From a virus (Duplodnaviria > Heunggongvirae > Uroviricota > Caudoviricetes): DNA of 26,124 nt. The notes under the pieces are model-generated. The model made no database searches and was not told the DNA's origin. It saw only the letters and a list, made by a program, of their open reading frames with translations. The stretch is from positions 1 through 26,124 of IMG/VR virus record IMGVR_UViG_2698536443_000009. The stretch is one strand, 5' to 3'. The translations under genes were made by a program, and so were the position numbers. This document shows positions 4,326 to 26,124 of the stretch, piece by piece. Every line of letters starts with the position of its first letter. Within the stretch, counting starts at the first letter, position 1.

Positions 4326-4343
4326 CCTATCGGAGCATTAAGC

Positions 4344-5597: not shown

Positions 5598-5603
5598 TTT
5601 AGG

Positions 5604-5627
5604 TGGGGCTTCGGCCCCATTTTTATT
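5604..5627 (+). terminator. Intrinsic terminator-like hairpin directly after the coat gene (GGGGC-UUCG-GCCCC followed by TTTTTATT)
   Basis: Seen directly: tGGGGC ttcg GCCCCa at 5604-5619 followed by a T-run at 5620-5627, starting 7 nt after the coat stop codon. Confidence 0.65.
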
Positions 5628-5638
5628 GGGAGAAGACA

Positions 5639-5827: not shown

Positions 5828-6269
5828 TCTCGTTCTAAAGGCTTTACGAAAAGCCGGGCTGTATTCCAATGCCACGTTGACAGATGCTGACCCTCAGGCA
5901 ATTGAAGATGCCATTAATGACCTCGAAGACATGATGGCAGCATGGCAGGCGAAAGGTATCGAGCTTGGATATCAGTTTGCTGATACAGAAAACGGCATCA
6001 TGCCGTTACCTGACGATGATTCAGGTATCCCTGCATGGGCAAATGATGGCGTCGCTTTGAAACTCGCTGTGCAAGTGTGCATGGATAACGTCATTCATCC
6101 GTCAGACGCTCTCCTTACCGCTGCTGACAGTGCATATCAGACAATCTGTATCGCTTTAACCAAAATACCACCACTTGAGCGGCGAAATGACATGCCTCGC
6201 GGTAGTGGTAACAAAAGCGCGTTTACGTGGAATCGGTTTTACATCGAGAAAGATGATCCGAGTACGTGA
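5808..6269 (+). CDS. Head completion / tail adaptor protein, P22 gp4-like
   Basis: 153 aa. The N-terminus KTKGDLVLKALRKAGL..ATLTDADPQAIEDAINDLEDMMAAWQ parallels P22 gp4 ([41 protein letters not shown]); the C-terminal GSGN motif is also shared. Confidence 0.8.
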   Translation: MAKTKGDLVLKALRKAGLYSNATLTDADPQAIEDAINDLEDMMAAWQAKGIELGYQFADTENGIMPLPDDDSGIPAWANDGVALKLAVQVCMDNVIHPSDALLTAADSAYQTICIALTKIPPLERRNDMPRGSGNKSAFTWNRFYIEKDDPST

Positions 6270-6278
6270 GGTGAATAA

Positions 6279-8650: not shown

Positions 8651-9105
8651 TGATTCAGTTCAAACCAACGCGAAACATCGACCTGATCGAAGCTGTCGGA
8701 AATCACCCTGACATTATTGCCGGAAGCAACAACGGTGATGGATACGACTACAAGCCTGAATGCCGTTACTTTGAGGTTAACGTGTACGGTCAGTTTGGCG
8801 GCATTGTTTACTATCAGGAAATTCAGCCGCTTACATTCGATTGCCACGCCATGTACCTGCCAGAGGTTCGTGGATTCAGCAAGGAAATCGGGCTGGCGTT
8901 CTGGCGATACATTCTGACTAACACCACCGTTCAGTGCGTCACATCGTTCGCTGCGCGCAAATTCCGCCACGGTCAGATGTACTGCGCAATGATTGGCCTT
9001 AAGCGTGTAGGAACCATCAAGAAATACTTCAAAGGCGTGGATGACGTGACGTTTTACAGCGCCACACGCGAAGAACTAATCGACTTCCTGAATCACGGGA
9101 GATAG
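8650..9105 (+). CDS. gp14-like protein (position of P22 gene 14)
   Basis: 151 aa ORF between the tail needle and ejection-protein genes; its ATG overlaps the preceding stop (TAATG). Assignment is by synteny only. Confidence 0.55.
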   Translation: MIQFKPTRNIDLIEAVGNHPDIIAGSNNGDGYDYKPECRYFEVNVYGQFGGIVYYQEIQPLTFDCHAMYLPEVRGFSKEIGLAFWRYILTNTTVQCVTSFAARKFRHGQMYCAMIGLKRVGTIKKYFKGVDDVTFYSATREELIDFLNHGR

Positions 9106-9107
9106 CT

Positions 9108-9803
9108 ATGTTATATGCATTTAAGCTGGGCAGAAAACTGCGCGGCGAGGAACCTTATTGCCCTGAAAAAGGCGGGAAAGGTGGCAGCTCTGATAAAAGC
9201 GCAAAGTATGCCGCAGAAGCTCAGAAGTATGACGCAGACCTGCAAAATAAACAGTGGCAGACGATCATGAAAAACCTTGCTCCGTTCACGCCGCTTGCGG
9301 AGCAGTATGTTAACCAGCTTCAGAATCTTTCCAGTTTAGAAGGACAGGGGCAGGCACTTAATCAGTATTACAACTCTCAGCAGTATAAAGACCTTGCAGG
9401 TCAGGCGCGTTACCAGAGTCTTGCTGCTGCGGAGGCGACGGGAGGACTTGGCTCGACAGCCACAAGCAATCAACTGGCCACGATTGCCCCGACTCTCGGT
9501 CAGTCGTGGTTGTCGAACCAGATGAGCAACTACAACAATCTGGCAAACATTGGCCTTGGTGCGCTGCAAGGTCAGGCGAACGCCGGGCAGACATACGCCA
9601 ACAACATGAGCAGCATTGCGCAGCAAAGCGCAGCTCTTGCCGCTGCTAATGCCAATAAACCATCAGGCCTTCAGACAGCAATTAGCGGCGGAGCTTCAGG
9701 GGCTATGACTGGCGCTGCTCTTGGCTCTATTGTTCCCGGGCTTGGCACTGGATTAGGTGCGGCAATTGGCGGCGGACTTGGCCTGCTTGGCTCGTTGTTT
9801 TAA
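9108..9803 (+). CDS. Ejection (internal head) protein, P22 gp7-like
   Basis: 231 aa (P22 gp7 is 229 aa), first of three consecutive ejection-protein genes, with a Gly/Ala-rich hydrophobic C-terminus. RBS GGGAGA. Confidence 0.7.
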   Translation: MLYAFKLGRKLRGEEPYCPEKGGKGGSSDKSAKYAAEAQKYDADLQNKQWQTIMKNLAPFTPLAEQYVNQLQNLSSLEGQGQALNQYYNSQQYKDLAGQARYQSLAAAEATGGLGSTATSNQLATIAPTLGQSWLSNQMSNYNNLANIGLGALQGQANAGQTYANNMSSIAQQSAALAAANANKPSGLQTAISGGASGAMTGAALGSIVPGLGTGLGAAIGGGLGLLGSLF

Positions 9804-9812
9804 GGGGTAATC

Positions 9813-11201
9813 ATGGCTACTTGGCAAGGATCAAATGGCGGATTGTTGGCTGGTATCGGCGGTGTCAACTCAAACGCTCCGAGCGTAAATGACATCGGCA
9901 ATACGCTTCAGCTTATCAGGCAGAACAATGATATTGAGCGTTCAGGCGCTAACAATGTTGGGCTGACTGCTTTGCAAGGCCTTTCAGGTATTGCGGGGGT
10001 GTTTCAGCAGGAAAAGCAGGCTCAGCGGCAGAAAGAATTTCAGCAGGCATACGCTAATGCTTATGCGTCTGGTGATCGCGGTGCTTTGCGTCAGTTGGCT
10101 ACTCAATATCCAGACCAGATTGAATCCGTTCGTAAAGGCATGGGATTCATTGATGAAGACCAGCGCAATTCTATCGGCACCTTAGCGGCTGGCGCTCGTC
10201 TTGCGGCATCGTCTCCAGAAGCAATGCAATCATGGCTGCAAAACAACGCCAAGGAACTGACTCGCGTCGGTGTTGACCCTAACAACGTTGCTCAGATGTA
10301 TCAGCAGAATCCTTCAGGATTTGGTGAGTTTGTTGATCACCTTGGGATGGCTGCGCTTGGTCCGATTGATTACTTCAATGTTCAGGACAAGATGGCTGGT
10401 CGTGAGATTGATCGCGGAAAACTTGCAGAGACAATCCGCAGCAATCAGGCTGGCGAGGCGCTAACAGCACGAGGCCAGAACATCACGATGCGCGGTCAGG
10501 ACTTATCTGCTTCTACTGCGCGACGCGGGCAGGATTTGGCAATGCAGCGAGCGTCAACAAGAGGAACCGCTGGGAATGATGAGCGTACAGTTCAGTTATC
10601 AGATGGCAGAACTGTAACGGTAGGCGGGAAACTTCACGGCGCTGGGGCTAATGCGTTCTACGAAGGCATCGACAACGAGGGGAATATGGTTCGCGTTCCT
10701 GCCAGTTCAATCGCAGCGCCTGCAACATCGTCTGCATCAGCACAAAACTATGCCATGAAGAAGGATATCGACGCGATCGCAAATGCAGACGCTTCTGCTC
10801 TCGATTTCATGACAGGAATGACAGGCGGTGCAGGTAATCCAGCAATTGGTGCTGATGTTCGCAGCCGATTAACAGGAAAAGAGCAGCGCCAGTTATATAA
10901 CTCAGCACAACGTATTCAGGGCAGAATGCAGAATCAGGGTGTGGCGGCAGCAAGGGACATGGGTGCCAGTGGTATTAACACCGTTGCAGAAGCGAAGATG
11001 TATTTTCAGGGGATGCCGCAGGTTGACTATTCAAGCCCGGAGGCTATGCAGCAGTCGATTCGTGAGATTCAGGAATACACCAACAATTACAACCAACAAT
11101 ATAACGTTAATGTTGGTAAATCTCAGCGGCAGCAATCTCAACCTGCACAGGTATCACAGCCAGCAGCCAGCAGTAACTTTTCTTCACTATGGGGTGATTA
11201 A
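9813..11201 (+). CDS. Ejection protein, P22 gp20-like
   Basis: 462 aa (P22 gp20 is 471 aa), in the syntenic position. RBS AAGGGG. Confidence 0.7.
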
Positions 11202-13198
11202 TGGCTAAAGCATGGAAAGATGTTATCGCCTCTCCACAGTATCAGGCGTTAGCACCAGAACAAAAAGCGCAGGCTCAGGAGCAATACTTCAATGAAGTCG
11301 TGGCCCCGCAAGCCGGAGAAAATGCAGAGCAGGCTAAGCAAGCTTTCTATGCTGCCTATCCATTGCCATCTGTGCAGCAAGTGGAGACACAGCAACCAGT
11401 AGCACAGCAACAACCACAGCAAAGTGGATTTATGTCTGATCTTGGCGAAGCAGTAAAAGAGACTGGTCGCGGACTGGTGCAGGCTGGCGTGAACGTGGCA
11501 AACATACCTGCATCAGTCGCCGATGCTGTAACAAGCGCGGCGGCTTGGGCTGGCGGTAAACTCGGCATTGGCGATGGTACATATCAACCAGCGCCACGAG
11601 TAACAACGCAGGGATTAGAGCAGGACTTTGGCCTTCAGCAAGGTGCGCTGACTCCACAAACGACAGAGGGAAGGGTATTTGCTGAAGCATTGCCTTACCT
11701 CACTCCTGCTGGAGTTGAGAGAGCTGCAACACAGGCACCAACACTTGCTGGTCGAATTGCTCAGGGTGCAACTCGCCTTCTCGCAGAAAACGCAGTTGGA
11801 TCACTTGCTGCAAATAGTGCGAAAGATGATGCGGAAGCACTCGCCACCGATTTAGGCGTTGGTGTGTTGGCTGGCGGTGCTATTAACGCTGCCGGACGTG
11901 GATTAGGTGCTGCTTATCGTGGCGTTCGTGGTGCTATTGCGCCAGAAGCGCAGCAGGCTATCAGATTTGCAGAGCGTGAAGGAGTGCCTCTGCACACCAC
12001 AGACCTGTTACAACCTACTTCCCGCGTCGGAAAAATGGCTCAGACTACAGCAGAAAATATCCCTCTGGCTGGCACAAGCGGAATGAGAGCAACGCAACAG
12101 GAAGCGAGAAGTCAGTTGGTGCAGAGATTTGCCGATAAATTCGGGGAGTATGATCCAGCGGTTGTTATTGACAGCCTTAAAGCGAAAACATCAGGAATTC
12201 GTCGTGCTGCCGGTAATCGACTGGAGCAGGTTCAGAATGCTATGGCTGGAGTAAACATTCAACCTGCGCGAGCAATTCAGCAGATTGATACAGAAATATC
12301 TAACCTGCAGAAGCTTGGTAAGGTTGCTGATAACGAGACTATTTCAAAACTTCAGTCATATCGTGATGAGCTTGTTCGCAATGCTGGTCCTGATGGTCCG
12401 GTCAATCTGGATTTGAAGCAATTAAGCGATCTGCGCAGCCAGTTCAGAATGGACGTGAAGGGTGAGCGACCAGTGTTACCAAACCGTTCCGATGCTGCCA
12501 TTCAGCGAGTTTACAAGGCGATGACCGACGATATCAATGGTGCCATTGGTCAGAATCTTGGCAATGATACTCTTCGTAAATATCAGCAGGCCAATGCCGT
12601 CTACGCTGACGAAGCGGCGAAACTAAAGAATACCAGGCTGAAGAATGTTCTCATGAAAGGCGACCTGACGCCGGAAGTTGTCAACAACATGCTATTCAGC
12701 AAGAACAAATCGGAAATTAAGACTCTGTATAACTCAGTTGGTCGTGTTGGCAGGGCGCAAATGCGCAATGGCATCATTGGAAAGGCGATGGAGAAATCAG
12801 GTGGTTCCCCTGACCAGTTCCTTCGGCAACTTAACATCCTGCAAAACCAGACTGGCATCACATTTAAAGGTCAGGAAGCCGCTTATCTGAAAGGATTGAA
12901 AAACTACCTGCAATCCACGCAACAGGCTGCAAAAGCAGCAGTAACAACACCAACAGGGCAGCAAACCATCCCGTTCATTATCGGGTATGGGACGGCAATG
13001 AACCCGGCGACAACTGGCGCAGCGGTAAGCTACGGACTTCTTACTCGCGCCTATGAGAGCGAGCCATTCAGAAATGCAATGCTCCGAATGGCAAACACAC
13101 CACGCGGATCAACAGCGTTTGAGAAAGCCATGCAGCAGGCGCAAAAGGCCATTAACGCCCTGACTCAGGGTGCCAAGTCTGATGCGTTGTCAGAATAG
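11201..13198 (+). CDS. Ejection protein, P22 gp16-like
   Basis: 665 aa (P22 gp16 is 609 aa), last gene of the ejection trio, with a TAATG overlap to the preceding gene. Confidence 0.7.
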   Translation: MAKAWKDVIASPQYQALAPEQKAQAQEQYFNEVVAPQAGENAEQAKQAFYAAYPLPSVQQVETQQPVAQQQPQQSGFMSDLGEAVKETGRGLVQAGVNVANIPASVADAVTSAAAWAGGKLGIGDGTYQPAPRVTTQGLEQDFGLQQGALTPQTTEGRVFAEALPYLTPAGVERAATQAPTLAGRIAQGATRLLAENAVGSLAANSAKDDAEALATDLGVGVLAGGAINAAGRGLGAAYRGVRGAIAPEAQQAIRFAEREGVPLHTTDLLQPTSRVGKMAQTTAENIPLAGTSGMRATQQEARSQLVQRFADKFGEYDPAVVIDSLKAKTSGIRRAAGNRLEQVQNAMAGVNIQPARAIQQIDTEISNLQKLGKVADNETISKLQSYRDELVRNAGPDGPVNLDLKQLSDLRSQFRMDVKGERPVLPNRSDAAIQRVYKAMTDDINGAIGQNLGNDTLRKYQQANAVYADEAAKLKNTRLKNVLMKGDLTPEVVNNMLFSKNKSEIKTLYNSVGRVGRAQMRNGIIGKAMEKSGGSPDQFLRQLNILQNQTGITFKGQEAAYLKGLKNYLQSTQQAAKAAVTTPTGQQTIPFIIGYGTAMNPATTGAAVSYGLLTRAYESEPFRNAMLRMANTPRGSTAFEKAMQQAQKAINALTQGAKSDALSE

Positions 13199-13267
13199 CT
13201 TCGCAAACACCAGGAACGTGCAAAAACCAAATATGTAGAACGCAATATTCATCATATCTCTTTGCAT
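13190..13267 (-). CDS. Candidate small hydrophobic peptide (25 aa, MQRDMMNIAFYIFGFCTFLVFAKLF) downstream of mnt
   Basis: On the minus strand, GGAGG (13276-13272) lies 4 nt before an ATG at 13267; the ORF runs to a TGA at 13192-13190. It is too short for the ORF track. It occupies the position where P22 carries sieA/hkcC. Confidence 0.25.
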   Translation of the reverse strand: MQRDMMNIAFYIFGFCTFLVFAKLF

Positions 13268-13287
13268 AAATCCTCCGTAATGGATGG

Positions 13288-13551
13288 TTAGTTGCTGTCT
13301 TTTTTATATAGCTCCTTTAGCGTGTCAAAGACAATTTTCTTAACCATATCGGATTGTTGTTCTGCCATACGCTCTGCATCGTCAATGTAAACTGATGCAG
13401 AGCTTTGTTTATCCAGTGATTCTTCAATCGCTGCAATTATCTCTGAGTTCAGAGACCTGTTATTCATCTTCGCACGCTGTTTAATCTTCGCGTGGAGTTC
13501 ATGCGGAAGTCTCAAGTGAAACTGCGCCTCGTCGTATTTGCTGTACATCAT
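13288..13551 (-). CDS. mnt: Mnt repressor (Arc/MetJ ribbon-helix-helix family), P22 immI region
   Basis: From the MMYSKYDE start, the protein aligns along its length with P22 Mnt: FHLRLPHELHAKIKQRAKMNNRSLNSEIIAAIEESLDK versus FNFRMPMEVREKLKFRAEANGRSMNSELLQIVQDALSK, and DDAERMAEQQSDMVKKIVFDTLKELYKK versus NDAERLADEQSELVKKMVFDTLKDLYKK. The track ORF is extended upstream to 13632; the start at 13551 (or 13548) has a GGTGAGG RBS. Confidence 0.85.
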   Translation of the reverse strand: MMYSKYDEAQFHLRLPHELHAKIKQRAKMNNRSLNSEIIAAIEESLDKQSSASVYIDDAERMAEQQSDMVKKIVFDTLKELYKKDSN

Positions 13552-13962
13552 CAATGCCTCACCTAATGGGTGGAATGGCATCGTAAAACCTACTGTACAA
13601 ATCAACAATCGTACCGTTTCGGTATGTAACAAACGCCAACCGTAGCCATGCTGCGGCGATTCCTTGTATCTGGAGCAAATTAAATGACAGATATTATAAA
13701 TAGGAATTTTTATTTAATAATATTTGAAAATTAAAATCATGGACGATAGGAATAAAAGTAGTACTTGTCATTTTTAAGTGACGCATTAAACGCATAAAGC
13801 ATATGTCTGTTGATCAAGATTCTTACTTGTTGTAAAATAATTGTCCTGTTCATGTTGCATGGTTTTAAAATGAATAGAAGATTATTTTTCAAAACAATTG
13901 CATCTTTGTCTGCAGTCATTCCGTTTTCTTCAATATCTAAATTTTCAAACAGGATGACTAAT
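13552..13962. promoter_or_regulatory. AT-rich control region between mnt and the tailspike gene (expected Pmnt, possible operator remnants and tailspike promoter)
   Basis: About 410 bp of AT-rich non-coding sequence with several inverted repeats (CACC-N6-GGTG near the mnt start; AAATGACA ... TGTCATTT separated by about 75 bp). P22 has arc and ant here; they are absent. Confidence 0.35.
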
Positions 13963-16194
13963 ATGCCTGATATAACTCCAAATGTTGTAATTGGGATGCC
14001 TTCGCAACTCTTCACTATGGCTCGCTCTTTTAAAGCGGTAGCCAATGGCAAAATTTATATAGGAAAAATTGACACTGACCCGGTAAATCCTGAAAACCAA
14101 ATTCAGGTTTATGTAGAGAACGAAGACGGTTCTCACGTTCCTGTTTCGCAACCAATCATCATTAACGCTGCTGGTTATCCGGTATATAACGGACAGATTG
14201 CCAAATTCGTAACCGTGCAAGGCCATTCAATGGCTGTTTATGATGCATACGGTGCGCAGCAGTTCTATTTTCCTAATGTGCTGAAGTATGACCCTGATCA
14301 GTTTAGAACAATAATAGAGTCAAATTATGGTGCGGGGCATGTTGGTACTTCGTCTGGACTAACAATTCAGCAGTTGATTGATTCTTTTATTGTAGTTACA
14401 CCACAAATGTTTGGTGAATCTGGAAAGTCAAATGATTCAACAATAGCAATTAACTCTGCATTGGACTATCTTGAGTCTCTAGGTGGTGGGATTATTTATC
14501 TTCCTCCAGGTAAATATTACGTCAGCATTGAAAAATCAGGTCATAATTATTCATGCATTAGAGTTCCCGCTAACGTAACTTTCTGTGGGGCTGGTGCTGG
14601 ATCTACCATCATTCAGAGACTACCCACTGAGAGGGGGATGGATGGTGTCTTGATAACAAATAAATATTATGATACTAGAACTGGCTATGGAGCTGCCGGC
14701 AATATTGTTTTTAGAGATTTTACAATCACTGACGGTAGCGCAACCCCAACAAGGGATTATGGTGATTTAATCGGTTTAGGTCATAGCAAAAATGTAACTA
14801 TAGAGAGAGTGGAGCAAGGGAGACATGATCAACATTTTGTTGATATTGCAGGATCAACCGATGTAACAGTCAAAGACTGTCACGGGTCGTGTGATATGGA
14901 GGTGGACCATATTACGTGGAATTGTGATATACAGATTGATTCCGCTCAACCAAACGCAATACTTGGAATTAAAGTTGATGGCACACCTAGCACAAATATA
15001 ATTATTAGCGGAAATAAACTTCAAAACAAAAGCTCAAATTTGCAAATTGAAATAGGACATGCTGGGGGAGTATATAGAAATATTATTATTTCTGATAACA
15101 TACTTGATGGGGCATATTTTCAAGACTCATCAGTTATTGGTTGTAACTCAACAACAGCTACCATTATCAATTTGAGCATAAATAACAATCAAATACTAAC
15201 AAATAATATAAATTCAAGAGGTGTTAATCTTTATTGTCTTGGGAATAACGAAAAACTTATTGGTATTTCTTTTAGTAATAATATTATAAGAGGTTATGCT
15301 AGGATTGGTGCATGGTTTGGGACTAATGGTAATTATACTGGAACGAAGTTTCCTCATGATGATGTAACAATAATAGGAAATAAATTCTTTCTAACATCGC
15401 CTTCATCTGGAACATTTGTTCAAGGTGTTGTTGTTGCTGGTTGGCGATCTGTTGTATGTAGTGATAATATAGTTGAGATATATTCTGATAATGAATTTTC
15501 TTCAGGGTGTTCGGTGATATCAGTTTGGAAAAATGGTAGTGCTAAGGTAAGTGATAACAATATCTCTAGAACATGTGGTGCAACACCTGACGTATCATCT
15601 TCAGTTATTTCGTTGATACTAATCACCCCTGAACCTTCCAGCATTGATAAGGCGTCATCAATCCATATTAATGGAAATGCTTTCTTTGGAGATATTCCTA
15701 GATATGCAATAAATCACAAAGAAGGGTGGATTGAAGGATATGACATGATAGTTGTATCAGGCTCTCATGGTAGATTTAACCAAACATTTATAGGCACGCA
15801 AGGGGCGCATATGTATGAAACGTACCCAATTTCTGATATGACAAATTTCAATCAACCAGTGTCAATAAATGGTCAATATAGAAGGCAGGTATACAGAGGA
15901 AATATTTACAAGTCAACGTTCAATTTGAAGAAAAATGGAAGTGAAACAAGTGGGGCTAAGGTGGATTTTTTTATATCTAATGAACGCTCAAAAATAACAG
16001 GTTCTGAACAATTGAATGTAGCATATATATCTCCAACTGAGTCTGTGGGAATCACCGCTACATCAATAGATTTGTCATCAGGAACACTTAATATAATTAC
16101 TGGAACAAATGGTGTATCTATGAATTTAAATCCATCCAATAAGCAGCCTGAAATAAGAAATAGCGCGTATATAAGCGCAAGGATTTCCATTTAA
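13963..16194 (+). CDS. Tailspike protein: P22 gp9-like head-binding N-terminal domain plus divergent receptor-binding domain
   Basis: [97 protein letters not shown]...[10 protein letters not shown] matches the P22 tailspike N-terminal domain closely. AGGA RBS 8 nt upstream of the ATG at 13963. The rest is AT-rich and unrelated to P22 gp9. The track ORF starts further upstream at 13810. Confidence 0.9.
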
Positions 16195-16985
16195 AATTCA
16201 GAAATTAGCCATAAAAAGCATGAAGTCTATCATCCAAGTGTCAATCGATCGATGACTTGCGGTGGTTGATGAGACAAAACTGAGACACACAAAGCTTTGC
16301 ACTGGATTGCAAGGCTTTGTGCTCTTCGATAGTGGTTAAGGTGGATCACTCCACCTTTTCATCAAGCCAGTCTGCCCACCACTGCATCATTTCTCTGCGC
16401 TTAATGTAGCGGATGCCTCACTATCACATAGTGATGGTTCATTACTGCTTTGTAGAATTGATAGAGAACTGAGGATAAAAAGATATCCCAAAACCCCAAA
16501 ATCTCATCTTTAGGATTTGCAGAAAGGGAGGCGTGAACAGATACCTGCGCATGAAGACGGAACTAGTCCAGATGTGATATTTGTGGTGATCACATACATC
16601 ATTAACGATGCTCGTTATGGTGAGTTTGATGACTACCCGCTGAAGTGAAAATTGTGTTGTGTACCAAATTGCGTACCAAACTAAAATCACAAATCATGAA
16701 ACCCTTGTTCATGGCGGTTCTCAGGGGTGTTGCGCGTAATCGTGAAACAAAAAGGTAGATTGTTGCTTACCGTCATTCATCATTAGGTTAAATCCGTTAT
16801 TTCTGCTGTCTGCCAGAGTATCAAATATCACCGTGCTAATCAGCTTTAGCGCCACAATTTGGCAGCGAGTGGCAACAGATCATGTCAGATAAAAATGAGA
16901 GGGTAGTCACATTTTCTTGCACTTTATTCCAGCCAGTTCATAAGTATTTCCGTAAAAAGAACAGCTATTTGAAACTCCTGAGGGT

Positions 16986-18947: not shown

Positions 18948-20006
18948 GTGCGTGCCGATAAGTCATTAAGCCCGTTTGAAATCCGGGTATACCGCCATTA
19001 CCGCATTGTGCATGGTACTCGGGTCGCGCTGGCATTCCTGCTCACTTTTCTCATTATCCGCCTGTTTACTATCCCGGAAAGCACCTGGCCGCTGGTCACC
19101 ATGGTGGTGATTATGGGGCCAATCTCGTTCTGGGGTAACGTTGTCCCTCGCGCCTTTGAGCGTATTGGCGGTACGGTGTTGGGTTCGATTTTAGGTCTTA
19201 TCGCTCTGCAACTGGAGTTAATCTCGTTACCGCTGATGTTAGTCTGGTGCGCGGCGGCCATGTTCCTTTGCGGTTGGCTGGCGCTGGGCAAGAAACCGTA
19301 TCAAGGTTTATTGATTGGGGTGACGCTGGCAATTGTTGTGGGTTCCCCGACAGGTGAAATTGATACGGCGTTATGGCGAAGCGGCGATGTGATCCTCGGC
19401 TCTTTACTGGCAATGTTGTTTACCGGTATCTGGCCACAACGGGCGTTCATCCACTGGCGCATTCAACTGGCGAAAAGTCTGACCGAGTATAATCGGGTCT
19501 ATCAATCTGCATTCTCACCGAACTTACTCGAACGCCCACGTCTGGAAAGCCATCTACAAAAACTCCTGACCGATGCCGTGAAAATGCGTGGACTGATTGC
19601 GCCCGCCAGCAAAGAAACCCGTATTCCAAAATCGATATATGAAGGTATCCAGACCATTAACCGCAATCTGGTTTGTATGCTGGAGTTGCAAATCAATGCA
19701 TACTGGGCCACGCGCCCCAGCCATTTCGTGTTATTGAACGCGCAAAAACTTCGTGATACCCAGCACATGATGCAGCAAATACTGCTGAGCCTTGTTCATG
19801 CGCTGTACGAAGGTAATCCGCAGCCGGTTTTTGCCAATACGGAAAAATTGAACGATGCTGTGGAAGAGCTGCGTCAGTTGCTCAATAACCACCATGACCT
19901 GAAGGTTGTGGAAACACCAATCTATGGTTATGTGTGGCTGAACATGGAAACGGCGCATCAGCTTGAGTTGCTATCGAATCTGATTTGCCGGGCCTTGCGC
20001 AAATAA
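18948..20006 (+). CDS. yeeA: Inner membrane protein YeeA (FUSC-like putative exporter family)
   Basis: 352 aa with multiple hydrophobic helices, GTG start preceded by a GGAG RBS, in the conserved dacD-sbmC-yeeA-yeeX order. Confidence 0.88.
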   Translation: MRADKSLSPFEIRVYRHYRIVHGTRVALAFLLTFLIIRLFTIPESTWPLVTMVVIMGPISFWGNVVPRAFERIGGTVLGSILGLIALQLELISLPLMLVWCAAAMFLCGWLALGKKPYQGLLIGVTLAIVVGSPTGEIDTALWRSGDVILGSLLAMLFTGIWPQRAFIHWRIQLAKSLTEYNRVYQSAFSPNLLERPRLESHLQKLLTDAVKMRGLIAPASKETRIPKSIYEGIQTINRNLVCMLELQINAYWATRPSHFVLLNAQKLRDTQHMMQQILLSLVHALYEGNPQPVFANTEKLNDAVEELRQLLNNHHDLKVVETPIYGYVWLNMETAHQLELLSNLICRALRK

Positions 20007-20177
20007 TTCCTGAACTTCAGAATCATCTTGCTGCTGCTTCGATTCAGCAAGGATAAAGGGTATGATAGTGAAAAGGGATAAAAGCATTGTCATCTGCGGC
20101 AGCTATGAGTAATGTTGGCCCTAACGAATAGCGGTTGCTTAAACGAATCCGACTCTCACATTATCAGGGGTATAAAA

Positions 20178-20507
20178 ATGGAAACTACCAAGCCTTCATT
20201 CCAGGACGTACTGGAATTTGTTCGTCTGTTCCGTCGTAAGAACAAACTGCAACGTGAAATTCAGGACGTTGAGAAAAAGATCCGTGACAACCAGAAGCGC
20301 GTCCTGCTGCTGGACAACCTGAGCGATTACATCAAGCCGGGGATGAGCGTTGAAGCAATCCAGGGCATCATCGCCAGCATGAAAGGTGACTATGAAGATC
20401 GCGTTGACGATTACATCATCAAAAATGCCGAGCTCTCCAAAGAACGCCGCGATATCTCCAAAAAGCTGAAAGCTATGGGCGAAATGAAAAACGGCGAAGC
20501 GAAGTAA
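20178..20507 (+). CDS. yeeX: YeeX (DUF496 family protein), 109 aa
   Basis: [41 protein letters not shown]... The internal ATG at 20178 is the likely true start; the track ORF from 20112 adds a 22-aa extension. Confidence 0.88.
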
Positions 20508-20521
20508 TTCCCGTTTTATTC

Positions 20522-20548
20522 AATGAGGGTTGCCCGGCAACCCTCATT
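20522..20548 (+). terminator. Strong 12-bp hairpin after yeeX (AATGAGGGTTGC ccg GCAACCCTCATT)
   Basis: Perfect 12-bp inverted repeat with a 3-nt loop, 15 nt after the yeeX stop, followed by a moderately U-rich tract (GCTCATTGATTCTTATCTG). Confidence 0.45.
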
Positions 20549-20607
20549 GCTCATTGATTCTTATCTGTGTATCACCGTCATCATTCTCATCCGAGAACCA
20601 ATCGAAA

Positions 20608-20964
20608 TTAACAACAGCCTTCTTCTGTATGCAGCAAGGCAAAAAGTTCTGTAACTCCATTGTTATTAACTGCACTGGTTACTAACACGTTGTGCGCTCC
20701 AGCTTCCCGTAACCAACTTTTCACCAAAGATATTTGTTCCATGCTGGCTAAATCTGCTTTGGTTACTACTCCAATGACCGGGTGATTCATGGCCCGGTAG
20801 GGCGTTTTTACCTCTAATTCCTGCTTCAGCGCTGAGATTCCTGCTTGTTGCCAGAAAAGCAGGCACCTGCCGTCTGAACGGTATCGATCCGGAAGCGTAT
20901 CTGCGCCATATTCTGAGCATACTGCCGGAATGGCCCTCCAACCGTGTTGACGAACTCCTGCCAT
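20608..20964 (-). pseudogene. EutP/PduV-like GTPase C-terminal fragment (yoeF-like remnant); only about 20608..20830 is protein-like
   Basis: The C-terminal part of the ORF (HPVIGVVTKADLASMEQISLVKSWLREAGAHNVLVTSAVNNNGVTELFALL) resembles the C-terminal region of EutP/PduV-type proteins. The N-terminal part is the antisense of the IS66-like fragment and is W/R/C-rich, so the gene is truncated. Confidence 0.45.
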
Positions 20965-21020
20965 GGAACGTAGTTCTCACCAATAAATAAGCGTCAATAC
21001 GGTGCTCCGTTGACGCTTAC
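20840..21020 (+). mobile_element. IS66-family insertion sequence remnant: transposase C-terminal fragment plus terminal inverted repeat
   Basis: The + strand frame ends ...CRLNGIDPEAYLRHILSILPEWPSNRVDELLPWNVVLTNK*, resembling IS66-family transposase C-termini (LPWN motif). The following 30 bp end in ...CGCTTAC, whose reverse complement GTAAGCG... matches the IS66-family terminal repeat start as I recall it. There is no intact transposase upstream. Confidence 0.5.
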
Positions 21021-21210
21021 TTTAATCCGTTTTCTGAGCTTAGATTTTTCTGTTCCTACCCAGACCGTGGATTTGGAATTCATTTTTTGTCAGGTCAATG
21101 CTAATCGTTAAAACGGCCATAACGCACCTCCACTGGAAGGTTTATCAGTAATATCCTACCGTTGCTTCATGGTCGGGGCGTCCATTCCATTATTATCGGT
21201 TTTCCTTTCT

Positions 21211-21248
21211 GTTTATAAATGAAAACGCCAGCTGTATTCAGGCTGGCG
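21211..21248 (-). terminator. Intrinsic terminator downstream of yeeW (minus strand)
   Basis: Minus-strand hairpin CGCCAGC cugaauaca GCUGGCG (21248-21226) followed by UUUUCAUUUAU. Confidence 0.5.
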
Positions 21249-21404
21249 TCAGGAGAAATGAAGCCTGTTGAGTGAGATTCACCGGTTCTGGTGCAGAAGC
21301 TGCAGATGGCGCAGGGTAAGGACATCTTCTCTTGCCTGCTTAATACAGGACAACAGTGCTGTTTCTGTGGTTAATGGCACTATACCCTGTATCACTGCAT
21401 TGTC

Positions 21405-21599
21405 TTACAGCAACTGGTGAGGGCTGGCATAAGTTGCCGGTGTTTCGGTAGAGTCACGGTCATCCACCACGCGGAGTGAATAACCGTTTTCAGCGGCCTT
21501 ATTAATCAGTTCAGTGATATTAACACCATCAATGTCAACGACAATGTGCCCCATATCCAGCGCCTGTACGTTAACGCTGTCGGCTTCCAGTGTCATCAT
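21405..21599 (-). CDS. yeeW: YeeW-family small protein (64 aa), CP4-44-like element
   Basis: 64 aa ORF overlapping the stop of the cbtA-like gene; matches the size and position of E. coli yeeW, the last gene of the CP4-44 toxin-antitoxin block. Confidence 0.8.
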   Translation of the reverse strand: MMTLEADSVNVQALDMGHIVVDIDGVNITELINKAAENGYSLRVVDDRDSTETPATYASPHQLL

Positions 21600-21970
21600 T
21601 TCGCCTCCGGATACTTACCCAGGGTAATGTTATTTACCGTTCTGTAATTGTCGCGGGTCATCAGGCCGGTCGCCCTGCGAGCCCGGAGGATATCGATGCT
21701 GTTTATTAACTGAGAGCGGGTACAGGCGCTGAATCCCGGCTGGTCGGTACGCACCAGCGCGTATTTTTCCACGAGAAAGTTCACCGCATCACACAGTGAA
21801 ATGCCTGCCTCAATATGCTGCTCAATCACACGTTCATCGGCAAAAGGTGTGTCATTCAGTGTGAGGCCATAGTGCTGGTCCAGCAGTCGGGACAGCAGTA
21901 TCTGCCAGATTTCAACAGGAGACGGGCGAGAACTGGCCGCCTGCCCGGGTAATACAGGTAATGTTTTCAT
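21596..21970 (-). CDS. cbtA: CbtA (YeeV) family toxin, inhibitor of FtsZ/MreB polymerisation
   Basis: 124 aa, the same length as E. coli YeeV, directly downstream of the cognate antitoxin gene in the conserved yeeT-yeeU-yeeV-yeeW order. Confidence 0.88.
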   Translation of the reverse strand: MKTLPVLPGQAASSRPSPVEIWQILLSRLLDQHYGLTLNDTPFADERVIEQHIEAGISLCDAVNFLVEKYALVRTDQPGFSACTRSQLINSIDILRARRATGLMTRDNYRTVNNITLGKYPEAK

Positions 21971-22058
21971 ACTGAAGATTTTCCTGATATGCAGATATAA
22001 AAATGGAAAAGTGGCGTGGTGAAAACACCAGGCCGTAGCAGAAGGCTATTCTGGAGAG

Positions 22059-22427
22059 TTAATTTTTCATTTCGGGCGTCGGATAAACAGCCAGATAAAC
22101 GTAACCACAACTGCTGAGGGTATCGGCTTTGCAGGTCAGCCCTTTTGCATACAGCGTGACGGTATGCTGATGGCGGGGATTCAGTTCACCGCTGGTGAGC
22201 ATGAGTTCCAGTTGTTTCATCAGCAGCGGAAAGGCCTGGTCCAGGTGGTACGCATCTGCATCGCTGAACAGGCCTCTGATACCGGCGCGGTCGGCAAGGT
22301 AATGCAACCGGTTACCCTCCTGCACCAGACGTGCCCCGAAACAGGGCGTCACGGTGCAGGGCAGCCCCCACCAGGGGCGGTCGTGATTGTCGTCGGGAAG
22401 TGTTGTCCCGGGGAGTGTGTCTGACAC
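22059..22427 (-). CDS. cbeA: CbeA (YeeU) family antitoxin
   Basis: 122 aa beginning MSDTLPGTTLPDDNHDRPWWGLP..., consistent with the YeeU/YfjZ/YafW antitoxin family; adjacent to the toxin gene. Confidence 0.88.
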   Translation of the reverse strand: MSDTLPGTTLPDDNHDRPWWGLPCTVTPCFGARLVQEGNRLHYLADRAGIRGLFSDADAYHLDQAFPLLMKQLELMLTSGELNPRHQHTVTLYAKGLTCKADTLSSCGYVYLAVYPTPEMKN

Positions 22428-22500
22428 GATAAAATCCTTACAGAAAATCGGCTAAGAATGGTCCGGTAGTGGCGATAATTCTGCTCATCAGAATTCCCAC

Positions 22501-22722
22501 TCAGTTCAGGGTGACGCTCATCAGCCGGACATACGGACCAAAACTGTCCTTACGGCGTTCAGCAAACACGGCCAGCACACCGGGAATATCCTGCACTTCA
22601 CGACCGGTATACGCTTCAGCACTGCCGTGCCAGCGGTATTTACCGGTACAGAACGGAAAAAGACGGGATGTCGGATGTTGTTGGTGAATACGCATGGCTT
22701 CACCACGGGTGATAATTTTCAT
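22501..22722 (-). CDS. yeeT: YeeT family protein (DUF987), 73 aa
   Basis: 73 aa ORF immediately upstream of the antitoxin gene, the conserved position of yeeT/ykfF-type genes. Confidence 0.8.
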   Translation of the reverse strand: MKIITRGEAMRIHQQHPTSRLFPFCTGKYRWHGSAEAYTGREVQDIPGVLAVFAERRKDSFGPYVRLMSVTLN

Positions 22723-22784
22723 AATGGGATACCTCTGAAGACAGAAGATAAAAGTGAAAACAGGTGTGATGTGGTTGTGAAGGG

Positions 22785-23276
22785 TTAAAGCAGACCATGT
22801 TCGGCAAAGGAGAAAACCTGGTTGCCACCGACTATCAGATGGTCCGGCACCCGGATATCCACCAGGCCCAGTGCCTGTACCAGACGTTCGGTGATAAGCC
22901 GGTCTGCCTTACTGGGTGTGACTTCACCGGACGGGTGATTGTGTGCCAGTACCACGGCAGCGGCATTGTGGTACAGGGCGCGTTTAATCACTTCCCGGGG
23001 ATGGACTTCCGTGCGGTTGATGGTGCCGGTGAAGAGGGTTTCACCGGCAATCAGCTGATTCTGGTTGTTCAGATACAGCACCCGGAATTCTTCACGCTCC
23101 AGTCCCGCCATGTTCAGAATCAGCCATTCCCGTGCTGCACGGGTGGAGGTGAAGGCCACGCCGGGTTCATGAAGATGGCGGTCCAGGGTTTTCAGGGCCC
23201 GTTGAATGAGGCTGCGCTCGCCGGGCGTCATCTCTCCGGGCAGAAAGGAAAGTTGTTGCATTGTGCTTCTCTCCAT
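22785..23276 (-). CDS. yeeS: RadC-like JAB-domain protein (YeeS/YkfG/YfjY family)
   Basis: Contains the JAMM-type motif HNHPSG plus conserved Glu/Asp context (VLAHNHPSGEVTPSKADRLITERL), typical of RadC-like proteins of CP4 elements. Confidence 0.88.
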   Translation of the reverse strand: MERSTMQQLSFLPGEMTPGERSLIQRALKTLDRHLHEPGVAFTSTRAAREWLILNMAGLEREEFRVLYLNNQNQLIAGETLFTGTINRTEVHPREVIKRALYHNAAAVVLAHNHPSGEVTPSKADRLITERLVQALGLVDIRVPDHLIVGGNQVFSFAEHGLL

Positions 23277-23756
23277 TCAGTCGATGATGCGCATAATGGC
23301 GCTGCATTCCGGATGCTGCAGGGCGTAATCCCGCAACCGGTAATAATGGACCGTCATGGCATAATTCTCCGTACGACAGGCATGATGACTGTACGTCATC
23401 AGACAGGCGGCAATACCGGCGGCTTCCGGGCTCATTTCTGCGCGGTTACCGTTCATGGCATTGAACAGTACCCATGTTTCGTCATCATCGTCATCCGGTT
23501 CGGGTGCCATAAATGCCCCGCCGTTGTTCAGGGTGTACAGATTCCAGATACCACCGCAGTAGTCTTCGCACAGACGGTCCATCCAGCCGAAGACACGGGG
23601 CTCCAGGGTCACCCACTGTGGAATGAGGCCAAAATGCTGCGGCCAGAAGCTGATGCGCTGTTCATCAGGGACGAGGCTGGCAACCAACTGAGGCGGATTA
23701 TTCTCTGGTGTTGTAGCTGAATAAATTGTGGGGGTATTCTGAGAAACGGTTTTCAT
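23277..23756 (-). CDS. Antirestriction protein, KlcA/ArdB-like (YfjX/YafX family)
   Basis: 159 aa with an acidic patch (PEPDDDDDETW) and conserved tryptophans, in the position occupied by antirestriction genes in CP4-6/CP4-57-type elements, directly upstream of the RadC-like gene. Confidence 0.75.
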   Translation of the reverse strand: MKTVSQNTPTIYSATTPENNPPQLVASLVPDEQRISFWPQHFGLIPQWVTLEPRVFGWMDRLCEDYCGGIWNLYTLNNGGAFMAPEPDDDDDETWVLFNAMNGNRAEMSPEAAGIAACLMTYSHHACRTENYAMTVHYYRLRDYALQHPECSAIMRIID

Positions 23757-23837
23757 GAGATAACTCCTTAAATAACAAATAAATGTGTGTTTTTCAGGAA
23801 CGAAAGCTGAATGATTCCCTCACTCAGGGAAACGGCA

Positions 23838-24659
23838 TCAGCGCAGGCTCTCCAGCATCGTTTCTGCCATCACCCACAATGCGCGATTGAGCTTAATGTC
23901 GGTATCAATGCTGTGAATGGCCCGGGTATGGATACGTTTTCCTTTTGCACTGCGACCGGAAATCCCGCCTTTCAGCATATTCTCCTGGATGGTCTGATAT
24001 GCGCTCCACAGGTCCTTACCGTAATCCTCCCGGCGTCGCGGCGTCAGAATGTCGGCGGTGGTGACGGGCTGATGTTCGTCACCATAACGGTAAGTCAGTG
24101 CCGCCTGTGCCAGCGCCTGGCGTGCCGGTGGCGGCAGGACCAGCGACTGCATGGCATCACGCTTCTCCTCTATCCGGTCAAACACGCCCACCACCTCGTA
24201 AGCCCCTTCGATAACTTTCTCCACTACATTTCCCCGGTGTGGAACACGCACTTCCCCCAGAGACTGGCCACAGACGCACCCGTTCTGGCAGACGAACCTG
24301 AAGTAACCCGGCAGCATCTGGTAGCTGGAGGTACCGTCATGAGAGTTGAGCAGAATAATTTCAGGGACATGTTCTCCGTTTATCTCTCCGGCCCGCCGCA
24401 GACGCAGCATGTGTTTTGTGTATCCCCGGCGGCCCGGGTCGCGCACACGGGTCTGGCAGGCGAAGAACGGCTGAAAGCCTTCCCGCTGCAGATTTTCCAG
24501 GACGGTAATGGTGGGAATGTACGCATACCGTTCACTGCGGGAGGTGTGCCGGTCTTCCCCAAAAATACTGGGTACATGGCGTATCAGTTCTTCATGTGTC
24601 AGCGGACGGTCACGGCGTATCTGGTTTGCAGCATAACCAAAACGACTTGCTAATCGCAT
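23838..24659 (-). CDS. DUF932-family protein (YafZ/YfjQ-like), conserved core gene of CP4-type integrative elements
   Basis: 273 aa ORF heading the conserved DUF932-antirestriction-RadC-TA gene block. Assignment is from memory of the family and from synteny. Confidence 0.7.
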   Translation of the reverse strand: MRLASRFGYAANQIRRDRPLTHEELIRHVPSIFGEDRHTSRSERYAYIPTITVLENLQREGFQPFFACQTRVRDPGRRGYTKHMLRLRRAGEINGEHVPEIILLNSHDGTSSYQMLPGYFRFVCQNGCVCGQSLGEVRVPHRGNVVEKVIEGAYEVVGVFDRIEEKRDAMQSLVLPPPARQALAQAALTYRYGDEHQPVTTADILTPRRREDYGKDLWSAYQTIQENMLKGGISGRSAKGKRIHTRAIHSIDTDIKLNRALWVMAETMLESLR

Positions 24660-24704
24660 ACTTTGCTCCTTATCGGTGGTTAAGATTTACTGGTGCAATA
24701 AATG

Positions 24705-24736
24705 AAAAAAGCCGCGTCTCCCGGAGAAGACGCGGC
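24705..24736 (-). terminator. Intrinsic terminator downstream of the two-gene cargo operon (minus strand)
   Basis: Minus-strand hairpin GCCGCGUCU ucuccggg AGACGCGGC (9-bp stem) followed by UUUUUU (plus-strand A6 at 24705-24710). Confidence 0.6.
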
Positions 24737-24879
24737 CTGACGGGTGAAATGAATAAGGTTTATTGTCTGAGAGGCCTTTCACTGGCGAGCCACGCATTAA
24801 GCGGCTTTCCGGTAACAATGGCTGGGGCTGTATTTACCTTTGATATTAATAATGTGCAGAGAAACGCATGGTTTACTCC

Positions 24880-25290
24880 TTAGATTTTAAGTTTGTCCTG
24901 GGCTACAACGACAGGTTTTCCGGATGTGTCGATGACTCCTACCGTCGGTACGCCATTTTTGATTTCGAAGAACGGTTTGTTGCTACCTGAGCACAGTTGA
25001 TTGTCCCCGTATTCAATCATTTGTGCTTTCCCGGTTTTCAGGTTAACTACCGAGACAGTGTAGTCGTAGCACCAGGCACCACCACGTTCAAGCACGAAAA
25101 CATAGCTGTTATCTTTATAGTTGAACTGATTCTTTGTCTGGCAATTCATACCGTCAATTTCGGTACAGGAAAACGCTTCTGTAGTATTAACGTATTTGAT
25201 GTTATTTGGCAGTTTTACTTGTTTCGCAGTAGCGAAGACAGAGAACAGAATAGTTACAGCAACGAGTAAAGTTTTGATAAAAGTTTTCAT
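24880..25290 (-). CDS. Secreted Cys-containing protein of unknown function (136 aa, N-terminal signal peptide)
   Basis: MKTFIKTLLVAVTILFSVFATA is a signal peptide; the mature part has four Cys and no recognised family. AT-rich relative to neighbours. It lies 15 nt downstream of the Ivy-like gene. Confidence 0.6.
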   Translation of the reverse strand: MKTFIKTLLVAVTILFSVFATAKQVKLPNNIKYVNTTEAFSCTEIDGMNCQTKNQFNYKDNSYVFVLERGGAWCYDYTVSVVNLKTGKAQMIEYGDNQLCSGSNKPFFEIKNGVPTVGVIDTSGKPVVVAQDKLKI

Positions 25291-25305
25291 GATAGACTCC
25301 TTAAA

Positions 25306-25794
25306 TTAGTTAACCGCAGCTACGTAGTTTTTCACCAGATACGCGAATTCATGCACGCCAATTTCACCGAACCAAACCAGGTAGGCCGGGTCATCTAAAC
25401 CAAAGTAACGGTAGCCAACAACTTCATGGGTTTTTGGGTTATAGAGTGTTACGATAAAGTCCCAGCCGCAGGTATTGGCTTTGCAACCGTCGCCCTGGAA
25501 CCAGACTGTACCGTTAATGTTTACTGGCGTGATACCTCCACCAGGGCCATCCATATAGCCGCCTTTACCGAACATGCCGCTCAGTCCGACCGGTTTTAAT
25601 GCTTTGTCGATAGCGGCTTTGTAGGTAGCGTCACCTTCGTACAACTCGTACGTTGATGGACACGCTCCAGGTTGTTCAGCCCAGGCTTCCGGGTTACAAC
25701 TAAGAGCTTGTTTTACGGTAGCCGCTTCTGCGTTAAAGTTAAAGCCCGTGAACAGAACCGCCAGAAATAACATAAGGGTATGTAAACGTTTCAT
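25306..25794 (-). CDS. Periplasmic Ivy-like protein (candidate lysozyme-inhibitor-fold protein), 162 aa from the internal ATG
   Basis: Signal peptide MKRLHTLMLFLAVLFTGFNFNAEA. The mature region aligns by eye with E. coli Ivy: KAAIDK / KAAFNQ, FGKGGYMDGP / MKGGTYTP, and GDGCKANTCGWDFIVTLY against SACKPHDCGSQRIAVMW, but the loop histidine is missing. The track ORF (25306..26097) extends upstream from a GTG and may include 5-prime UTR. Confidence 0.5.
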   Translation of the reverse strand: MKRLHTLMLFLAVLFTGFNFNAEAATVKQALSCNPEAWAEQPGACPSTYELYEGDATYKAAIDKALKPVGLSGMFGKGGYMDGPGGGITPVNINGTVWFQGDGCKANTCGWDFIVTLYNPKTHEVVGYRYFGLDDPAYLVWFGEIGVHEFAYLVKNYVAAVN

Positions 25795-26124
25795 TGTAAA
25801 TATTCTTCCGTTGTAAATGGCGCTGGAAAATTTCTCATCAGTGAAACCTTCCGGAAGTTTCCCCCCCTTGTATGATGTATATCGCCAGTATTTTATTTCA
25901 TCCCGGCTGTAATTTTTATATTCCCCGGCACGTGCAATAACGCTGACCAGAGATATAAGGCTCATTAATAACTTTACAGGTAATTTCATAATTAAATTTC
26001 CAGTGAGTGAATTGACAGGTGAGGGGTAAAACTTTCTCTCAGGTAATATATATCTGAAAATATTTTCAATAACACCAGACAGGAAAAACACCACCACAGG
26101 CGGTGGCGTTTCTTTGGGGCGTCT

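Follow-up and report, generated by a model that had tools for sequence, protein, structure and literature searches.

Three CP4-type islands of E. coli K-12 are among the closest described systems. CP4-6 (yafZ ... yafX-ykfG-ykfH-yafW-ykfI) and CP4-57 (yfjQ ... lfgA/yfjX-lfgB/yfjY-ypjJ-yfjZ-ypjF) both hold ArdB, RadC, DUF987, antitoxin and toxin genes as one operon-like run, and yfjXY-ypjJ-yfjZF has been reported to be a single transcript, the lfgABCDE operon (PMC10846083). The third island, CP4-44, carries yeeS-yeeT-cbeA-cbtA-yeeW-yoeD-yoeF. A different arrangement is described in E. coli 042, in which irmA, aec70 and aec71 sit between (flu-)yeeR and yeeS; separately, a set of six multi-copy genes that are transcribed together, an antirestriction gene and a 'DNA repair' gene among them, has been described in most strains (PMC6480617).

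Several products of these genes have been studied experimentally. ArdB of strain CFT073 relieved four type I restriction systems (IA, IB, IC and ID) by 54- to 1174-fold in vivo and none in vitro, and YafX and YfjX also relieve type I restriction in vivo (PMC2836571). LfgB (YfjY) of CP4-57 reportedly breaks down the antitoxin MqsA and gives protection from H2O2, acid and heat; the protease preparation was poorly soluble, and contaminating proteases are, according to its authors, not strictly excludable. MqsA itself binds the lfgABCDE operon promoter, at a mapped site ~245 bp upstream of lfgA (PMC10846083). The toxins of the three K-12 toxin-antitoxin pairs are toxic and are neutralised by their antitoxins, without autoregulation; the genes are weakly transcribed, deletion of the loci is tolerated, and mutants have been examined for stress and biofilm phenotypes (PMC5371832). 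CbtA is described as targeting FtsZ and MreB (PMC5624674).

A seven-gene block at the CP4-44 locus

The DNA analysed here, referred to as the window, is a stretch of 26,124 nucleotides from the IMG/VR virus record IMGVR_UViG_2698536443_000009. Seven ORFs in its ORF listing, all on the minus strand, occupy precisely positions 21405-24659, in agreement with the operon-like block proposed in a preliminary description of this sequence. The intergenic gaps, from DUF932 to CbtA, are 81, 15, 62, 73 and 88 nt, and cbtA and YeeW then overlap by 4 nt; 'operon-like' is a reasonable term because the genes share one strand and are this closely spaced. All seven family names given earlier were borne out by Pfam (E-values from 2e-29 to 3e-58, scores far above chance), and RefSeq places the same seven genes on DNA 100% identical to the block. 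In the six full-length genes (DUF932, ArdB, YeeS, YeeT, CbeA and CbtA) Pfam profiles are covered end to end with no stop, and no frameshift was found. Two long antisense ORFs on the plus strand (22797-23720 and 23811-24653) had no family match.

The chromosomal position had also been assigned correctly. The block is flanked by dacD-sbmC-yeeA-yeeX and lies at the same locus as K-12 CP4-44, whose right-hand junction with yeeX(tmaR)-yeeA-sbmC-dacD is retained, the DNA through yoeF to yeeX being identical. The end of the window, at 26124, is still inside the island; in strains with DNA identical to the window, the upstream cargo comprises, after two hypothetical genes, those for patatin, RdcB, a dynamin-like protein and a GTPase. 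Many E. coli chromosomes contain the 3.25-kb block at 100% identity, and its protein sequences recur in many genomes, with RefSeq protein accessions. A copy at ≥80% coverage is present in 4306 of 5426 complete genomes, with a median of three matching places per genome. Together, these observations make it very probable that the block represents, in the form carried by most E. coli strains, the conserved, yeeX-proximal end module of the CP4-44 cryptic genomic island. The literature and RefSeq already cover this block, including the toxin-antitoxin pair and the antirestriction protein, and it carries little weight as a discovery.

CP4-6 and CP4-57 share the family repertoire and gene order of the window, with proteins 60-82% identical to those encoded here; unlike the window, they have no DUF5983 gene following the toxin. 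A full module is found in other E. coli islands, for example in NZ_CP139337 (GTPase-Ag43-DUF932-ArdB-JAB-DUF987-YeeU-CbtA-DUF5983-DUF957-DUF4942). Starting 140 nt upstream of DUF932 and continuing through the first third of DUF5983, it has the same genes, order and spacing as the window (89% DNA identity over window 24798-21460). Homology to this full-length block ends at 21460; in the window roughly two thirds of DUF5983 are missing, as are the central part of DUF957 and the entire DUF4942.

The block was therefore called 'complete' too generously. YeeW (21405..21599, minus strand, overlapping the cbtA stop by 4 nt) is what remains of the N-terminal part of a DUF5983 gene, truncated to 64 aa. 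It matches DUF5983_N only (Pfam, 2e-29) and is 100% identical to its K-12 counterpart; full-length DUF5983 is ~162 aa, encoded by genes of 489 nt in NZ_CP139337 and at a second locus, L007. A DUF957 remnant with an internal deletion follows at about 21279..21371 on the minus strand. Identical DNA is annotated in RefSeq as a partial DUF957 pseudogene, and the translation, LTTETAL..LSCIKQAREDVLTLRHLQLLHQNR and a stop, matches both ends, without the middle, of the 65-aa protein of NZ_CP139337. DUF4942 is replaced by fragments of IS66 and EutP/PduV, identified by Pfam and RefSeq at 20608..20990: yoeF (minus strand), which retains only the C-terminal part of a PduV-EutP match (6.3e-13), overlaps yoeD (plus strand, 20862-20990), an IS66-family transposase fragment that matches IS66 transposases on plasmids.

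Proteins of the block and the hairpin upstream of DUF932

The first gene of the block (23838..24659, minus strand) encodes a 273-aa DUF932 protein (PF06067, 4.8e-52, 177.4 bits versus a gathering threshold of 23, profile 2-227 of 227) that is 75% identical by tblastn to the K-12 paralogues YafZ and YfjQ. Approximately 40 nt upstream of its start codon, a scan identified a terminator-like site on the minus strand (24700..24738), comprising a GC-rich 13-bp hairpin and a T-run; this hairpin is the dominant stem in the computed fold. A hairpin and T-run occupy the same place before DUF932 in NZ_CP139337, CP4-6 and CP4-57, with stem sequences that differ in the latter two islands. No sigma-70-like promoter was found before DUF932 or ArdB, promoter-like sites in the scan being as frequent as expected by chance. 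DUF932 and ArdB are 81 nt apart in the window, ~2 kb apart in CP4-6 and 6.4 kb apart in CP4-57, with other genes between; because of this 2-6 kb separation, DUF932 need not share the ArdB transcript. DUF932 and DUF987 genes are among the most duplicated in E. coli.

The antirestriction gene (23277..23756, minus strand, 159 aa) had been called KlcA-type, an assignment of which the family stands (PF03230 Antirestrict, 3.8e-37, profile 1-92 of 92; phrog_10132 'anti-restriction protein', 1.1e-64) and the type does not. Because it matches ArdB of CFT073 (PDB 2WJ9) at 4.7e-100, over its full length and with about 91% identity, versus 5.9e-21 for KlcA (PDB 2KMG), the product is by sequence an island-type ArdB rather than a KlcA. 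Nearly every difference from the CFT073 PAI-II protein falls within the first 28 residues, a divergent N-terminal tail. Identity to YafX and YfjX is 67-69% by tblastn and 68-70% by global alignment.

YeeS (22785..23261, minus strand, longest ORF from 23276) is a short RadC-like JAB-domain protein of 158 aa (PF04002, 8e-45, profile 2-121 of 121; PDB 2QLC, 6.3e-26). It is 100% identical to K-12 YeeS over 150 aa, 82% identical to YkfG and 78% identical to YfjY/LfgB. Its translation shows an H-N-H-PSGEVTP-S-KA-D motif, and the JAB metal-binding motif H-x-H-x7-S-x2-D can be read intact in HNHPSGEVTPSKAD. Against the full-length RadC equivalog NF000642, YeeS reaches 160.6 bits where the cut-off is 180, and aligns with profile positions 88-211 of 212 only; by this comparison it belongs to the short, JAB-only type that mobile elements typically carry. 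Of the 2334 plasmids with RadC-JAB homologues, 1649 are conjugative, and JAB and DUF4942 lie close together on an IncL/M plasmid. YeeT (22501..22722, minus strand), a DUF987 protein of 73 aa (PF06174, 1.9e-39, profile 1-65 of 65), is 100% identical to K-12 YeeT.

The type IV antitoxin CbeA (YeeU; 22059..22427, minus strand, 122 aa, GTG start; PF06154, 4.3e-53; PDB 2H28 YeeU, 5.4e-84) differs from the K-12 protein at one residue, Gly108 in the window and Asp in K-12, because of the one base by which the aligned loci differ. It is encoded directly upstream of the toxin CbtA (YeeV; 21596..21970, minus strand, 124 aa; PF06755, 3.1e-58, profile 1-112 of 112), on the same strand and across the 88-nt gap. 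CbtA is 100% identical to K-12 CbtA, 58% identical to YkfI and 64% identical to YpjF.

Proposed role of the end module

By comparison with the paralogous islands, ArdB through CbtA are probably expressed as one transcript. Judging from tested, near-identical proteins, ArdB would block type I restriction endonucleases in vivo while sparing methylation, acting indirectly and not by DNA mimicry; CbtA would bind FtsZ and MreB, halting division and elongation; and CbeA would counter CbtA, the pair exerting no control over its own transcription. The paralogue LfgB suggests that YeeS would be a JAB-type zinc metalloprotease-like protein. Gene content points to a module that would act as a mobile-element establishment-and-retention cassette, in which ArdB, and perhaps DUF932, would shield incoming DNA and the toxin-antitoxin pair would penalise loss. 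The preliminary description's suggestion that the toxin may contribute to element maintenance is plausible, but since the annotation of one strain with identical DNA lists no integrase for the 20 kb past the block, a maintenance role would be played with no obvious mobile element left; in such a decayed island the module would persist as a passenger.

We also considered whether the block has by now been domesticated as a host stress-response operon, its JAB protease degrading host regulators such as MqsA and its type IV toxins modulating growth under oxidative stress. LfgB's degradation of MqsA, the accompanying stress protection and the presence of MqsA at the operon promoter (PMC10846083) are consistent with such a role, as are the stress and biofilm phenotypes examined in toxin-antitoxin mutants (PMC5371832) and the extreme sequence conservation across E. 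coli. However, YeeS and LfgB share only 78% identity, and the promoter region that holds the MqsA site in CP4-57 is not conserved in position, because the ArdB-DUF932 gap here is 81 nt. Multiple copies per genome, homologues on conjugative plasmids and progressive 3' decay argue instead for a mobile-element origin. We regard this role as unlikely; it can be reconciled with the end-module explanation.

It is rather doubtful that the end module is, more specifically, the chromosomal-island counterpart of the leading region of conjugative plasmids, an early-entry establishment cassette with DUF932 as first gene, the conserved hairpin and T-run insulating or gating expression, and then ArdB, the JAB protease and the toxin-antitoxin pair. 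DUF932 homologues, 61-63% identical, occur in at least 5000 plasmids, at least 4439 of them conjugative among the matches listed. The IncF leading region encodes a 273-aa DUF932 protein, 63% identical, near oriT and with hok, psiB, DUF905 and ssb, as in pHeBE7, where the DUF932 gene adjoins the transglycosylase gene and traM. CbtA/CbeA, DUF987 and RadC were not found in this 18.8-kb plasmid stretch, and the F-type nic sequence is absent from the window. If this proposal were true, CP4-type islands would descend from, or still move as, conjugatively transferred elements, and DUF932 would have an anti-defence or DNA-entry role.

Decay at the 3' end raises the further question of whether the island is dead and its ORFs survive only as pseudogenes, non-functional relics. 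YeeW, DUF957, yoeD and yoeF are clearly fragments, and the K-12 toxin-antitoxin genes are weakly transcribed (PMC5371832), but the six upstream genes retain end-to-end profiles with neither frameshift nor stop, the same proteins have RefSeq accessions in many genomes, the JAB metal-binding motif is intact, and CbtA is identical to a K-12 protein of demonstrated toxicity. Such a state is very improbable.

Relation to K-12 CP4-44

Positions 20560-23237 of the window, from yoeF to ~25 nt inside the 5' end of yeeS, equal K-12 CP4-44 save for one base, and 20200-23237 is 100% identical in one K-12-like laboratory strain. K-12 homology stops at that point within yeeS. Beyond it, the 5' end of yeeS is fused to yeeR in K-12. 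There, flu-yeeR lies directly upstream and ArdB and DUF932 are missing, as the preliminary description had stated; the window has both genes. The ArdB-YeeS junction is found in 4430 of the 5426 genomes and the whole yeeX-to-DUF932 stretch in 3086, versus at most 385 for the K-12 yeeR-yeeS junction. An intermediate at locus L007 has yeeR, then a 3' fragment of ArdB, then yeeS. Because of the rarity of its junction, the break inside yeeS and this intermediate, the K-12 flu-yeeR-yeeS arrangement looks like a deletion derivative, and that of the window like the common form.

The earlier suggestion of a CP4-6/CP4-57-like arrangement in place of yeeR and flu, and with it a hybrid island formed when a DUF932 and antirestriction segment of that type replaced yeeR-flu, accords with the gene families and order of those islands and with the abrupt end of K-12 homology inside yeeS, but is hardly credible, since DUF932 (75%) and ArdB (67-69%) are too distant from the CP4-6/CP4-57 proteins for a recent donor, those islands carry other genes between the two, the window arrangement is the majority at the locus, the K-12 junction is rare, the truncated-ArdB intermediate exists, and E. 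coli 042 has the order flu-yeeR, irmA, aec70, aec71, yeeS (PMC6480617).

The conserved end module thus changes how the locus is read: K-12, the usual reference, appears to have deleted it, and the presence of ArdB and DUF932 in the window would represent the normal E. coli state and not an unusual hybrid.

Gene content of the block

Seven open reading frames, all on the minus strand, fill positions 21405-24659, and each matched the family named for it in the preliminary description. In order of transcription these are DUF932 (23838-24659; Pfam E = 4.8e-52), the PF03230 antirestriction protein ArdB (23277-23756; 3.8e-37), the RadC-like JAB protein YeeS (22785-23276, with a RefSeq start at 23261; 8e-45), DUF987/YeeT (22501-22722; 1.9e-39), the antitoxin CbeA (22059-22427; 4.3e-53), the toxin CbtA (21596-21970; 3.1e-58) and YeeW (21405-21599; 2e-29, to the DUF5983 N-terminal domain model only). 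These matches show directly the identities and family memberships of the genes, and the block is an already known and annotated feature. The first six ORFs span their profiles end to end; there is therefore no sign of the frameshifts that would mark pseudogenes. Spacers from DUF932 to cbtA measure 81, 15, 62, 73 and 88 nt; the final pair, cbtA and yeeW, share 4 nt. Two long antisense ORFs (307 and 280 aa) lack a Pfam match and were ruled out as genes.

No RNA family was found by Rfam in 19000-26124 at E values up to 1, and none of nine proteins matched a PADLOC defence-system model. A promoter scan returned four promoter-like sites (4.2 expected by chance), none of them before DUF932 or ArdB. 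On the minus strand at 24738-24700, about 40 nt ahead of the DUF932 start codon, lies a 13-bp GC-rich hairpin followed by a T-run. Only about 30 nt separate the T-run from the ribosome-binding site, too short for a promoter, and the scan detected none there. A hairpin and T-run occupy the corresponding position in the fuller island of NZ_CP139337 (L005), where the Ag43 terminator is separate and further upstream, and likewise precede DUF932 in the K-12 islands CP4-6 and CP4-57, whose stems differ in sequence. The position is thus kept in four island paralogues; no such hairpin precedes the homologue on the IncF plasmid.

A sequence search of solved structures gave no match for DUF932. The AlphaFold2 model, built on a shallow alignment of 25 sequences (75-100% identity, among the 120 closest matches listed), had a mean pLDDT of 47 and a pTM of 0.41, too poor for a fold search. 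Titles and abstracts of the 13 papers naming DUF932 indicated no functional study.

Chromosomal setting and decay of the tail

The locus is K-12 CP4-44. The 3255-bp block occurs as 100% identical DNA in many E. coli chromosomes, and at least 80% of it is covered in 4306 of 5426 complete genomes; the median genome has three matching places. In a strain identical to the window (L001), one flank of the block carries dacD, sbmC, yeeA and tmaR (yeeX), then fragments of EutP/PduV, of a transposase and of DUF957; beyond the block come two hypothetical genes, then patatin-like, RdcB-family, dynamin-family and GTPase genes.

The block had been called complete, a view that the fuller copy in L005 overturns. 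That module runs GTPase, Ag43, DUF932, ArdB, JAB, DUF987, YeeU, CbtA, DUF5983 (489 nt), DUF957 (198 nt) and DUF4942 (843 nt). The two agree at 89% identity over window 24798-21460, after which about 475 bp are missing from the window and the match returns only at 21361-21192. YeeW therefore represents just the first 64 codons of a gene of about 162 codons. In the DUF957 reading frame both ends survive and the middle is missing; DUF4942 is absent, its place taken by an IS66-type transposase fragment and a yoeF fragment. This decayed tail is common to the window and K-12.

The fragment at 20862-21020 is 96-99% identical to IS66-family transposase genes on many plasmids and accounts for about 2200 plasmid matches in a wider search. 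Repeats in 20400-26124 comprised only short chance-level pairs and one 14-nt palindrome. The latter, a perfect inverted repeat with a 1-nt loop at 20521-20549, directly follows the yeeX (tmaR) stop near the island boundary and is probably a bidirectional terminator.

Upstream of DUF932, two minus-strand ORFs lack Pfam matches: one of 136 aa (24880-25290), which matches phrog_8968 (unknown function), and one of 263 aa (25306-26097) with two signal-peptide-like segments, annotated by RefSeq in near-identical DNA as a pseudogene of 684 nt that contains an internal stop. Past the window end, L001 23476-31411 carries a patatin-like phospholipase, RdcB-family and dynamin-family genes and a YeeP-like GTPase as cargo, whereas K-12 has Ag43 and YeeR upstream of the block. 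Variable cargo appears to be exchanged in the interval that separates a conserved GTPase gene from the conserved DUF932 module.

Window positions 1-16734 belong to a P22-like prophage and cover the end that carries its late genes, which encode portal, DNA stabilisation and ejection proteins as well as a tailspike or head-binding protein. A strain lacking the prophage is homologous to the window from 16735 onward, a position that falls 48 nt into the sbcB coding sequence from its 5' end, which places the prophage between sbcB and dacD. A plus-strand ORF of 794 aa at 13810-16194 lies in a stretch of only 34-40% GC, well under the roughly 50% in the rest of the window; its position is consistent with a prophage tailspike or receptor-binding gene, and its composition with an exchanged cassette.

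Relation to CP4-44, CP4-6 and CP4-57 of K-12

The preliminary description had read the block as a CP4-6/CP4-57-like arrangement at the CP4-44 position. The proteins are too divergent for this: DUF932 is 75% identical to its CP4-6 and CP4-57 counterparts, and ArdB 67-69% (tblastn; 68-70% in global alignment). Gene spacing also differs, DUF932 and ArdB being about 2 kb apart in CP4-6 and 6.4 kb in CP4-57, compared with 81 nt in the window. On these identities and spacings, the window does not carry a CP4-6/CP4-57-type substitution.

The window form is instead the common one. Its CbtA, YeeT and YeeW are 100% identical to those of K-12 CP4-44, and alignment of 20560-23237 revealed one differing base in 2.7 kb, at 22105, which makes K-12 Asp108 of CbeA a Gly here. 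K-12 homology ends about 25 nt within the 5' end of yeeS; at this point K-12 carries the terminal part of yeeR instead. The 148-aa K-12 YeeS starts in yeeR-derived sequence (14309-14340 of the K-12 locus, L002), which leaves its N-terminal residues without homology to the 158-aa YeeS here and in most E. coli. The ArdB-yeeS junction (23040-23440) is covered to at least 80% in 4430 of the 5426 genomes, and the entire yeeX-to-DUF932 stretch in 3086, O157:H7 among them; for the K-12 yeeR-yeeS junction the count is 385 at most. One strain (L007) holds an intermediate, in which yeeR is followed by a 171-nt ArdB 3' fragment and then yeeS. According to published maps, E. coli 042 carries irmA, aec70 and aec71 between yeeR and yeeS; six multi-copy, co-transcribed genes, including an antirestriction and a 'DNA repair' gene, are described separately in that paper (PMC6480617). 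Judged by these alignments and counts, the K-12 arrangement is the derived form, having lost part of the block.

Proposed functions and links to conjugative plasmids

The antirestriction protein had been described as KlcA-type. Its PF03230 family holds, but the type does not: it is about 91% identical to CFT073 ArdB (PDB 2WJ9, E = 4.7e-100), with KlcA far weaker (5.9e-21). In vivo, type IA to ID restriction is relieved 10- to 9250-fold by CFT073 ArdB, YafX and YfjX. Methylation is hardly affected and purified EcoKI not at all; the mechanism is therefore indirect (PMC2836571). The window CbtA is identical to the K-12 toxin, which has been shown to inhibit division and elongation by direct contact with FtsZ and MreB (PMC5624674). 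The three K-12 antitoxins neutralise the toxins, and transcription is autoregulated by neither toxin nor antitoxin (PMC5371832).

YeeS is a short RadC form that scores under the cut-off of the full-length RadC model and retains an intact JAB metal-binding motif. LfgB, its paralogue in CP4-57 at 78% identity, reportedly degrades MqsA, in work where solubility was a problem and the authors could not strictly rule out contaminating proteases; yfjXY-ypjJ-yfjZF is described there as a single operon (PMC10846083). The MqsA regulation of CP4-57 is not transferable to this block: there the site was mapped some 245 bp upstream of lfgA, whereas the spacer here is only 81 nt.

At least 5000 plasmids carry DUF932 homologues of 61-63% identity, and 4439 of those listed are predicted to be conjugative. 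In IncF pHeBE7, the DUF932 gene adjoins a transglycosylase gene and traM, in a leading region with hok, psiB, a ParB-like gene, DUF905 and ssb; the remaining block genes were not found in this stretch. Plasmids with a RadC-JAB homologue number 2334 (1649 conjugative), and an IncL/M plasmid has its JAB gene close to DUF4942 and Hha genes. The F-type oriT nic sequence had no match in the window with up to three mismatches allowed. These results support a gene pool shared by the block and conjugative elements, and nothing beyond that. The module is most probably an establishment-and-retention cassette that came from a mobile element and is now a passenger within a decayed island.
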